The position numbers and the translations under genes are program-made. From a virus (lineage: Duplodnaviria > Heunggongvirae > Uroviricota > Caudoviricetes), in the IMG/VR virus record IMGVR_UViG_2700989507_000006: 64,000 nt of DNA; one strand, 5' to 3'. Positions 14,404 through 15,179 of the stretch are shown piece after piece (position 1 is the stretch's first letter; each line of letters starts with the position of its first letter). The notes beneath the pieces are model-generated. The model searched no databases. It was given only the letters and a program-made list of their open reading frames with translations, and was not told the DNA's origin.

Positions 14404-14479
14404 TGGTGGCCCCTACCGGACTTGAACCGGTGACCGTGCGATTATGAGTCGCCAGCTCTAACCACTGAGCTAAAGGGCC
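14404..14479 (-). tRNA. tRNA-Ile (anticodon CAU, lysidine-type) or tRNA-Met
   Basis: 76-nt cloverleaf with encoded CCA; anticodon loop CUCAUAA; acceptor stem with C4-G69/C5-G68 and close resemblance to enterobacterial tRNA-Ile2 as remembered. Confidence 0.8.
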
Positions 14480-14482
14480 GGA

Positions 14483-14590
14483 TTACTGTTTCCTAAGTGC
14501 TTCAATGGCGCTAACAATACCGCCTACAACTATGGCAACAATGATAATGAGAACAATTGGATACTTATCTGCAAAATCCCAGAAGCTCAT
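14483..14590 (-). CDS. small hydrophobic membrane peptide (35 aa)
   Basis: MSFWDFADKYPIVLIIIVAIVVGGIVSAIEALRKQ; AAGGA RBS 6 nt upstream; start overlaps stop of upstream ORF (TGATG). Confidence 0.4.
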   Translation of the reverse strand: MSFWDFADKYPIVLIIIVAIVVGGIVSAIEALRKQ

Positions 14591-14754
14591 CACTGATCCT
14601 TCGAGGCTGGTTTAAATATCGGCCATACCAATGTTACAGCTACTGCTACCAACGCCCCGTCGGATAAAACCGACAGGATTGTGCTGGTGAAATCCACCAG
14701 CACAGATAGCACGAGAAAAACCAAAGCCAGAATTAGACGTGCTTTTATAACCAT
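14590..14754 (-). CDS. small hydrophobic membrane protein (54 aa)
   Basis: MVIKARLILALVFLVLSVLVDFTSTILSVLSDGALVAVAVTLVWPIFKPASKDQ; start overlaps stop of TerB-like gene (TGATG). Confidence 0.4.
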   Translation of the reverse strand: MVIKARLILALVFLVLSVLVDFTSTILSVLSDGALVAVAVTLVWPIFKPASKDQ

Positions 14755-15179
14755 CAGATATACTGTTCCAGTGGCAATTGAAGAGCCTGGGCAATTTTCT
14801 TCAATTGCTCCTGCTCTTCTGCCCCAATGCCATCCTGGTCAGCAATATCAATGCATAGGCACAGAACATCTACCGCATCATTAGTTCCAGACACGTCAGC
14901 CAGTTCACGTAAAGCCTGGGCATTCGCTCGGCGCGGCGAGGCTTCATATTGAGCGCGAATATTGGCGCTCATCTGGGCAATTTCACCGGAGAACGGCGCA
15001 AAGGCAGGAAGTGCTGCAATGGTTTTTTCCAATACTGCAATTTCTTTCGCATCGCAGGTGCCGTCAGAGTATGCAATGGAATATGCGCCCCAGACGGTCG
15101 CTTCCACCGCATCACGGTTTTCCATCTTCTTGACTCCGCCAGCCGCTTTGCGGAATTTCTTTTTGAGAATGCCGAGCAT
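14754..15179 (-). CDS. TerB-like (tellurite-resistance TerB domain) protein
   Basis: 141 aa; matches the TerB-family pattern as I remember it (acidic helical protein with central DxxxE-rich segment); fits the P1 tciA position upstream of ban. Confidence 0.55.
   Translation of the reverse strand: MLGILKKKFRKAAGGVKKMENRDAVEATVWGAYSIAYSDGTCDAKEIAVLEKTIAALPAFAPFSGEIAQMSANIRAQYEASPRRANAQALRELADVSGTNDAVDVLCLCIDIADQDGIGAEEQEQLKKIAQALQLPLEQYI

Follow-up and report, generated by a model that had tools for sequence, protein, structure and literature searches.

The segment between positions 14404 and 15179 of virus record IMGVR_UViG_2700989507_000006 (Caudoviricetes; the window, i.e. the whole stretch of DNA analysed, spans 64,000 nucleotides, nt) most probably represents the tciA–tciB–tciC–trnI portion of the C1-repressed ban operon of a P1-like phage-plasmid, in which a TerB-like gene and the genes for two mini membrane proteins would be expressed in a coupled manner ahead of a transfer RNA (tRNA) and the helicase gene ban. 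The elements concerned, in order of transcription, are as follows.

14754-15179, minus strand: tciA (TerB-like), 141 amino acids, with an ATG start and a GAGG Shine–Dalgarno sequence 8 nt upstream
14752-14756, minus strand: overlap of the tciA stop and tciB start codons, TGATG, with one shared base (A)
14590-14754, minus strand: tciB, 54 amino acids, Pfam family DUF3927 (PF13064, 101.3 bits against a cut-off of 25, E-value 2.7e-29, profile positions 1-53 of 53)
14588-14592, minus strand: overlap of the tciB stop and tciC start codons, TGATG, again with one shared A, and with an AAGGA Shine–Dalgarno sequence upstream
14483-14590, minus strand: tciC, 35 amino acids counted from the ATG (the open reading frame lister starts one codon earlier, at a GTG), with a single hydrophobic segment
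14404-14479, minus strand: trnI, anticodon CAT, with an encoded CCA (ARAGORN; Rfam tRNA model, 64.7 bits)
14119-14403, minus strand: leader, 285 nt to the ban ATG at 14118, or 279 nt to an upstream in-frame GTG
12754-14118, minus strand: ban, a DnaB-type replicative helicase of 454 amino acids from its ATG (Pfam DnaB_C, E-value 6e-108, and DnaB, E-value 3e-35; P1 annotation)

An initial annotation of this segment had described two small hydrophobic open reading frames of 54 and 35 codons joined to a TerB-like gene by TGATG overlaps, then a tRNA-Ile and a leader of about 280 nt before ban. All of these are found: both overlaps are present within the stretch it described, the first of them being retained in related elements (see below), TciB has two hydrophobic segments and TciC one, the tRNA at 14404-14479 is of the tRNA-Ile2 type by identity and acceptor pairs, and 285 nt separate the tRNA from the ban ATG.

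Over positions 14100-15700 the window displays 97.2 % identity to phage P1 at 100 % coverage (megablast against phage records; AF234172, AF234173 and NC_005856), and its features are co-linear with those annotated in AF234172. The P1 order runs from the promoter Pban and the bivalent C1 operator Oban (formerly Op72), through a dicF-like region, tRNA-Asn, tRNA-Thr, upl, plp, tciA, tciB, tciC and trnI, to ban and dbn; upl and plp are annotated on the opposite strand to the rest of the operon, and dmt and gene 5 lie at the edges of the homologous region. With 97 % identity to annotated P1 genes, the arrangement is already known and constitutes no new observation, tciA, tciB, tciC, trnI and ban having been part of the P1 annotation since publication of that genome. 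The likeness extends to gene order, strand logic, the TGATG junctions, the tRNA and the C1 operator pair, whilst the differences are allelic only: 9 of the 35 residues of TciC, all of them conservative replacements, and small indels in the hairpin loop and variable region of the leader.

Comparison of the stop/start junctions across related elements indicates that the arrangement is maintained. The tciA/tciB overlap reads TGATG in P1 and TAATG in P7, D6 and three SSU5-like phage-plasmids, i.e. TRATG is kept in 6/6 further loci examined from four element types (P1, P7, D6 and SSU5-like), a recurrence which argues that the arrangement goes beyond chance. The tciB/tciC junction is likewise TGATG in P1, P7 and D6. 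The SSU5-like phage-plasmids (~110 kb; from Escherichia coli, Klebsiella and Cronobacter) share the two-gene unit with its one-base overlap, their TciA proteins being 72–86 % identical to that of the window. For P7 and D6 the one-base overlap is also common ground, whilst the TerB allele is very divergent, with a non-synonymous divergence (dN) of ~0.79. A 196-amino acid TciA–TciB fusion (P0003, from a single Logan assembly contig) was considered as 'Rosetta-stone' evidence of an interaction and rejected. Its junction, ...EQLYLMVIK, fits a one-base insertion at the TGATG and its cluster has only one member; the fusion is probably an assembly or sequencing frameshift.

TciA is 100 % identical to P1 TciA at the amino acid level. 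Its N-terminal tail is basic and disordered, and an acidic 'DG' motif occurs twice, as SDGTCDAKE and as DQDGIGAEE. Its hydropathy profile contains no hydrophobic segment. The Pfam TerB profile (PF05099) matches it in two stretches with 28.4 bits, against a gathering threshold of 24.4 (E-value 2.1e-6), the precomputed Pfam annotation of its homologues is PF05099 in nearly all, and the protein matches PHROG 632, 'tellurite resistance', along its full length. An AlphaFold model built with an alignment of 24 homologues displays six helices at a mean predicted local distance difference test value (pLDDT) of 84.8, with only the N-terminal 10 residues disordered, and fold comparison identifies it as a TerB-like all-helical fold. 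A sequence search of the PDB returned no TerB; the acidic DG loops gave rise to spurious EF-hand matches, and these were all it produced. The TerB assignment made in the initial annotation is thus upheld by profile search and by the modelled fold, and TciA is predicted to be a soluble, cytoplasmic TerB-fold protein, though the profile scores are modest. Mass spectrometry of P1 virion preparations has detected TciA peptides (PMC9024508), from which it follows that TciA is at least translated. Like TerB of the terZABCDE operons (IncHI2 R478 and enterohaemorrhagic E. coli O157), it combines the Pfam TerB domain with a helical fold and paired acidic DG motifs. Unlike that protein, its partner is a DUF3927 mini-protein, and it resides in a phage lytic operon that lacks annotated ter partners.

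TciB differs from its P1 counterpart at 2/54 positions, and is assigned to PHROG 1470. Its two hydrophobic segments (approximately residues 7–21 and 33–47) accompany a conserved VLVDFT...SDG core. Across lineages the ratio of non-synonymous to synonymous substitution rates (dN/dS) of tciB is 0.16–0.58, with dS saturated; tciB is a real gene under purifying selection. TciC matches PHROG 23152 (E-value 1.9e-26) and has neither a Pfam nor an NCBIfam family; an NCBIfam scan of all three Tci proteins gave no meaningful match. The TciC allele of the window is encoded unchanged in 93 plasmids, and D6 contains a diverged version of 37 amino acids in the same place and frame, with the same TGATG, in which the hydrophobic core is kept and most residues are changed. 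We read tciC as a probably genuine, loosely constrained transmembrane peptide.

The tRNA that follows has its 5′ end 3 nt past the tciC stop codon (14483-14485). ARAGORN labels it Met, a literal reading of CAT. Over all 76 nt it is 89.5 % identical to chromosomal tRNA-Ile(CAU) genes, annotated as tRNA-Ile in 5,426/5,426 complete E. coli genomes, and it harbours the acceptor-stem pairs C4-G69 and C5-G68, as read from its sequence. These two pairs are TilS determinants, which direct lysidine synthesis. The level of identity, the two acceptor pairs and the encoded CCA favour isoleucine over methionine, and the P1 annotation similarly lists 'tRNA-ile2 (CAT), 89 pct identical to ileX'. The element therefore reads as a tRNA-Ile2 (ileX-like) gene, and 'tRNA-Ile' appears to be the correct call. 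It resembles E. coli ileX/ileY and phage-borne tRNA-Ile(CAU) genes in its CAT anticodon, in C4-G69 and C5-G68 and in its identity to the chromosomal genes; it differs from them in lying inside a protein-coding operon, 3 nt past a stop codon and directly before a structured leader RNA. Within the 38 longest open reading frames of the window, ATA occurs 10.5 times per 1000 codons and accounts for 18.7 % of isoleucine codons. Usage of ATA in E. coli is ~4–5 per 1000 codons, and a level about twice as high fits a supply role for trnI.

Further upstream, two sets of features place these genes under repressor control and within a longer transcript.

16915-16942, strand unassigned: bivalent C1 operator Oban a/b (formerly Op72), overlapping Pban, ~1.75 kb upstream of tciA and in agreement with the P1 annotation
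16108-16261, minus strand: tRNA-Thr(TGT) and tRNA-Asn(GTT), earlier members of the ban operon (ARAGORN, Rfam and P1 annotation)

The operator consists of a perfect 17-mer, ATTGCTCTAATAAATTT, at 16926-16942 (minus strand), and an overlapping copy with two mismatches at 16915-16931 (plus strand); across the window, 10 operator-like sites are observed against 0.3 expected. A strict consensus scan, which is blind to weak or non-sigma-70 promoters, found no consensus sigma-70 promoter between the operator pair and tciA. The operator pair and the lack of an internal consensus promoter, in agreement with Pban/Oban of P1, indicate that the genes belong to the repressor-controlled ban operon, consistent with the early replication operon proposed in the initial annotation.

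On this basis, loss of C1 repression would yield one Pban transcript carrying tRNA-Asn, tRNA-Thr, tciABC, tRNA-Ile and ban. Ribosomes ending on tciA would re-initiate on tciB, and then on tciC, such that synthesis of a soluble TerB-like subunit would go together with that of its small membrane partners, and the three could assemble into a membrane-anchored complex. As trnI begins 3 nt past the tciC stop codon, maturation by ribonuclease P at its 5′ end should, by general tRNA processing, sever the transcript at that point and part tciABC from the ban message, whilst processing at the tRNA 3′ end would leave the structured leader as the 5′ end of that message. Once lysidine-modified, the tRNA would read AUA codons.

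Several points weigh against this coupled-expression reading, the blindness of the promoter scan being one. A strong intrinsic terminator (16733-16752, minus strand), made up of a GC-rich stem of 8 bp and then TTTTTTT, follows Pban at a distance of ~170 nt and precedes the tRNAs, tciABC and ban. It either delimits a short RNA from the dicF-like region of P1 or must be read through for expression of the rest of the operon, and it may limit the share of Pban transcription arriving at tciABC. No phenotype is reported in the literature for the tciABC cassette, and translation of TciB and TciC, as well as the interaction of the three proteins, is inferred from the sequence. The remaining points concern tciC: its dN/dS is 0.64, resting on only 13 substitutions, and in the SSU5-like loci an intrinsic terminator comes straight after tciB, with neither tciC nor the tRNA present. 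The conserved unit would thus be the TerB-like gene and its translationally coupled DUF3927 partner, with tciC and the tRNA as additions seen only in P1, P7 and D6. The conservation of the two small frames, on which the initial annotation had depended, holds for tciB, which is found in P7, D6 and the SSU5-like elements under purifying selection, and is narrower for tciC, which is seen only in P1, P7 and D6 and is weakly constrained.

These same observations could signify that tciA, perhaps with tciB, is alone real, and that tciC is a chance hydrophobic frame before a tRNA. The dN/dS value, the lack of a Pfam or NCBIfam family and the absence from SSU5-like relatives would all agree with this, as would the fact that tciC is usually left out of RefSeq and PLSDB plasmid annotation. 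Chance would not, however, readily explain why the frame, its TGATG start, its length and its hydrophobic core persist in D6 despite divergence, nor the AAGGA Shine–Dalgarno sequence 6 nt upstream, the PHROG 23152 homologues or the uniformly conservative nature of the nine replacements relative to P1. We regard a spurious tciC as distinctly improbable.

With regard to function, knock-down of P1 genes by CRISPR interference (CRISPRi) classifies tciA, tciB, tciC, trnI and ban as non-essential for plaque formation (PMC10695390). P1-like phage-plasmids have eight variable regions, of which tciABC is one, and roughly half of the members of subgroup 1 have lost it (PMC9603915). RCS47-type P1-like elements carry a single gene of 275 amino acids with an SPFH/Band_7 domain (positions 1008-1835 of the RCS47 stretch, minus strand) in place of tciABC (slot 14483-15179), with the flanking upl, tRNA-Ile, leader RNA and ban unchanged; this is another membrane-associated cargo in the same slot. 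With low confidence, tciABC may be viewed as a dispensable accessory cassette that works at the inner membrane once a cell is induced or infected, perhaps to buffer ion or envelope stress or to keep out competitors, and our best guess as to its form would be a membrane-anchored TerB-domain complex. As the operon is C1-repressed, the cassette would act at the membrane during lytic development and not as a resistance gene of the lysogen, and a role as a tellurite-resistance determinant of the lysogen is unlikely. Tellurite resistance, colicin resistance and defence are homology-based guesses, and reviews repeat the suggestion of tellurite resistance or phage inhibition without data (PMC11652158, PMC6799933).

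One of these suggestions is that tciABC forms a superinfection-exclusion or anti-phage/anti-colicin module which, in the manner of ter-operon phenotypes, protects the carrier or infected cell. The TerB homology is in keeping with this, as is the behaviour of the cassette as accessory cargo, which varies, is not essential and gives way to an SPFH gene in relatives, and such a role has been proposed in reviews, again without data (PMC11652158). On the other hand, PADLOC-DB 2.0 contains no family matching TciA, TciB or TciC at E-values up to 1, and within 2.5 kb on each flank of the match the P1 annotation lists none of terC, terD, terE or terZ, a negative which covers this P1 annotation, the remainder of the window not having been scanned protein by protein. 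A C1-repressed lytic operon would also be largely silent in the very lysogen requiring protection, and the literature holds no experiment on the matter (PMC6799933). An exclusion module is therefore unlikely. A second alternative is host takeover, in which the cassette would block cell division or alter membrane physiology early in lytic growth, by analogy with the 'inhibition of cell division' in the tci name. An early, repressor-controlled operon with a dicF-like region in the P1 annotation would suit this, functions of this kind are typically carried out by small membrane peptides, and a preprint groups tciA, tciB and tciC with icd and kilA by annotation. The support is by analogy alone, no DicF is found by Rfam in this region of the window, and CRISPRi knock-down produces no plating defect; host takeover, too, seems doubtful. 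Beside both alternatives, an accessory cassette acting at the membrane of the induced cell stays the preferred reading. Occurring in several phage-plasmid families, the TerB and DUF3927 pair offers a small, tractable system in which to study the role of the TerB domain.

The leader between trnI and ban harbours a conserved RNA, which recurs far beyond P1-like elements. Its features within the window are as follows.

14202-14391, minus strand: conserved structured RNA of ~175–190 nt (covariance model and compensatory changes)
14388-14368, minus strand: helix P1
14364-14350 with 14317-14304, minus strand: helix P2
14264-14261 with 14253-14250, minus strand: helix P3
14232-14228 with 14220-14216, minus strand: helix P5
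14379-14376 with 14297-14294, minus strand: pseudoknot
14258-14255 with 14241-14238, minus strand: pseudoknot, helix P4

This fold of five helices and two pseudoknots was proposed and counted on the same 40-sequence alignment. Paired combinations fill 96.5 % of alignment cells, compared with 26–45 % in slid-partner controls, and compensatory changes occur in 17/34 pairs. On four of five measures none of 500 shuffles reaches the observed value, and on the fifth, the count of further pair types, 7/500 do so. The folding energy of the leader is ordinary (z = -0.2) and was uninformative on structure; it was covariation that proved informative. A coding role for the leader was considered and rejected, as the sole open frame is interrupted by an indel in the hairpin loop of P1.

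The covariance model, built from 40 members including the window copy, scores that copy at 133 bits, and also finds copies in P1, P7, D6 and RCS47. Beyond these elements, the first ~190 nt past the tRNA display 83 % identity to unannotated DNA of Stx2 phages, which there closely follows cI with its terminator and operator-like repeats and precedes a yfdP-type gene. Copies are present in 2,147/5,426 E. coli genomes, in which the element is never annotated, and in 107 phage records, including mEp390 and epsilon15-like phages as well as phages of Klebsiella, Enterobacter and Stenotrophomonas; a core 15-mer retrieves more than 100 viral contigs. The CPS-53 prophage of E. coli K-12 contains no copy by the covariance model, and the curated annotation of K-12 is thus uninformative on the element. 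It is close to certain that the family is real. Rfam 15 gave no match to the leader under three search settings, and a literature search with the core sequence returned nothing relevant; with no Rfam 15 match and no paper printing that sequence, it is plausible that the family is undescribed. The prophage small RNAs Pas, AgvB and AsxR were considered as possible identities and rejected, being short and terminator-bearing, and, for AgvB and AsxR, having Rfam models of their own. Nucleotides 31-63 of the leader (window 14341-14373) match E. coli 2012C-4502 (NZ_CP027440, 1868887-1868919) at 100 % over 33 nt, in a region annotated as CRISPR, and a natural CRISPR spacer thus appears to target the conserved leader RNA element.

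As to what this RNA does, its context in other phages is suggestive. The same strand carries a cI/LexA-type repressor gene, ending 86–139 nt upstream of the RNA, in at least five unrelated lineages, and in lambdoid relatives promoters scoring 10–11 of 12 end 7–55 nt before its first helix. The RNA is thus promoter-proximal in lambdoid relatives, directly behind a pL-type promoter, and not in the window, where it follows a tRNA. The stem of its first hairpin, ACGGCG...CAUGCGUCG, is that of stem I of the put RNAs of HK022 and HK639. This common stem, together with the repressor and promoter context, suggests a put-like, cis-acting leader. The likeness covers the 5′ hairpin stem sequence and, in lambdoid relatives, the promoter-proximal position after a cI-type repressor gene. 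The put RNAs of HK022 and HK639 comprise ~70 nt and two stems, whilst the leader RNA comprises ~175 nt, five helices and two pseudoknots, and the P1-type copy lies 2.5 kb from its promoter, behind a tRNA. The whole-element covariance model, run on the HK022 immunity region and the HK639 genome, gave no hit in either. A census of downstream terminators was uninformative, with terminators on the sense strand at 53/102 loci and on the antisense strand at 84/102.

A more specific proposal is that the leader RNA forms an uncatalogued pseudoknotted family, that it comes first in transcripts from the leftward, repressor-controlled early promoter of many temperate enterobacterial phages, and that it would serve as an enlarged put-like processive antiterminator acting in cis on RNA polymerase. 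Taken as a whole this is tentative and may well not hold, and the antiterminator mechanism by itself is a guess. In P1-type elements the RNA lies behind the tRNA, whose 3′ processing would then present it as the start of the ban message. What makes the element worthy of attention is that a covariation-supported RNA stands at the start of the early operon in many temperate phages that seemingly lack an N-type protein. If the proposal were true, it would be a third kind of RNA antiterminator, and would broaden the reach of a mechanism so far known in only a handful of phages.

The region upstream of tciA yields some further observations. A partial match to the STnc100 small RNA family, covering model positions 31-147 of 206, occurs at 15213-15333 (minus strand), 34 nt upstream of the tciA start; at 37.8 bits against a cut-off of 47 it is sub-threshold (E-value 2e-6). 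A 2026 preprint describes STnc100 and TerB genes near the PasA/PasC small RNAs in lambdoid prophages. On the operon strand, 137 nt over the 3′ end of the opposite plp frame (15890-16026, minus strand) are 97 % identical to unannotated leader DNA of Stx2 phages, where the counterpart lies ~120 nt downstream of the structured RNA. Neither upl nor plp has a Pfam family. T-arm-like motifs, GGGTTCATATCCC, recur on the operon strand under both frames, with a repeat at 15572-15601, and the coding status of upl and plp may be worth a second look.

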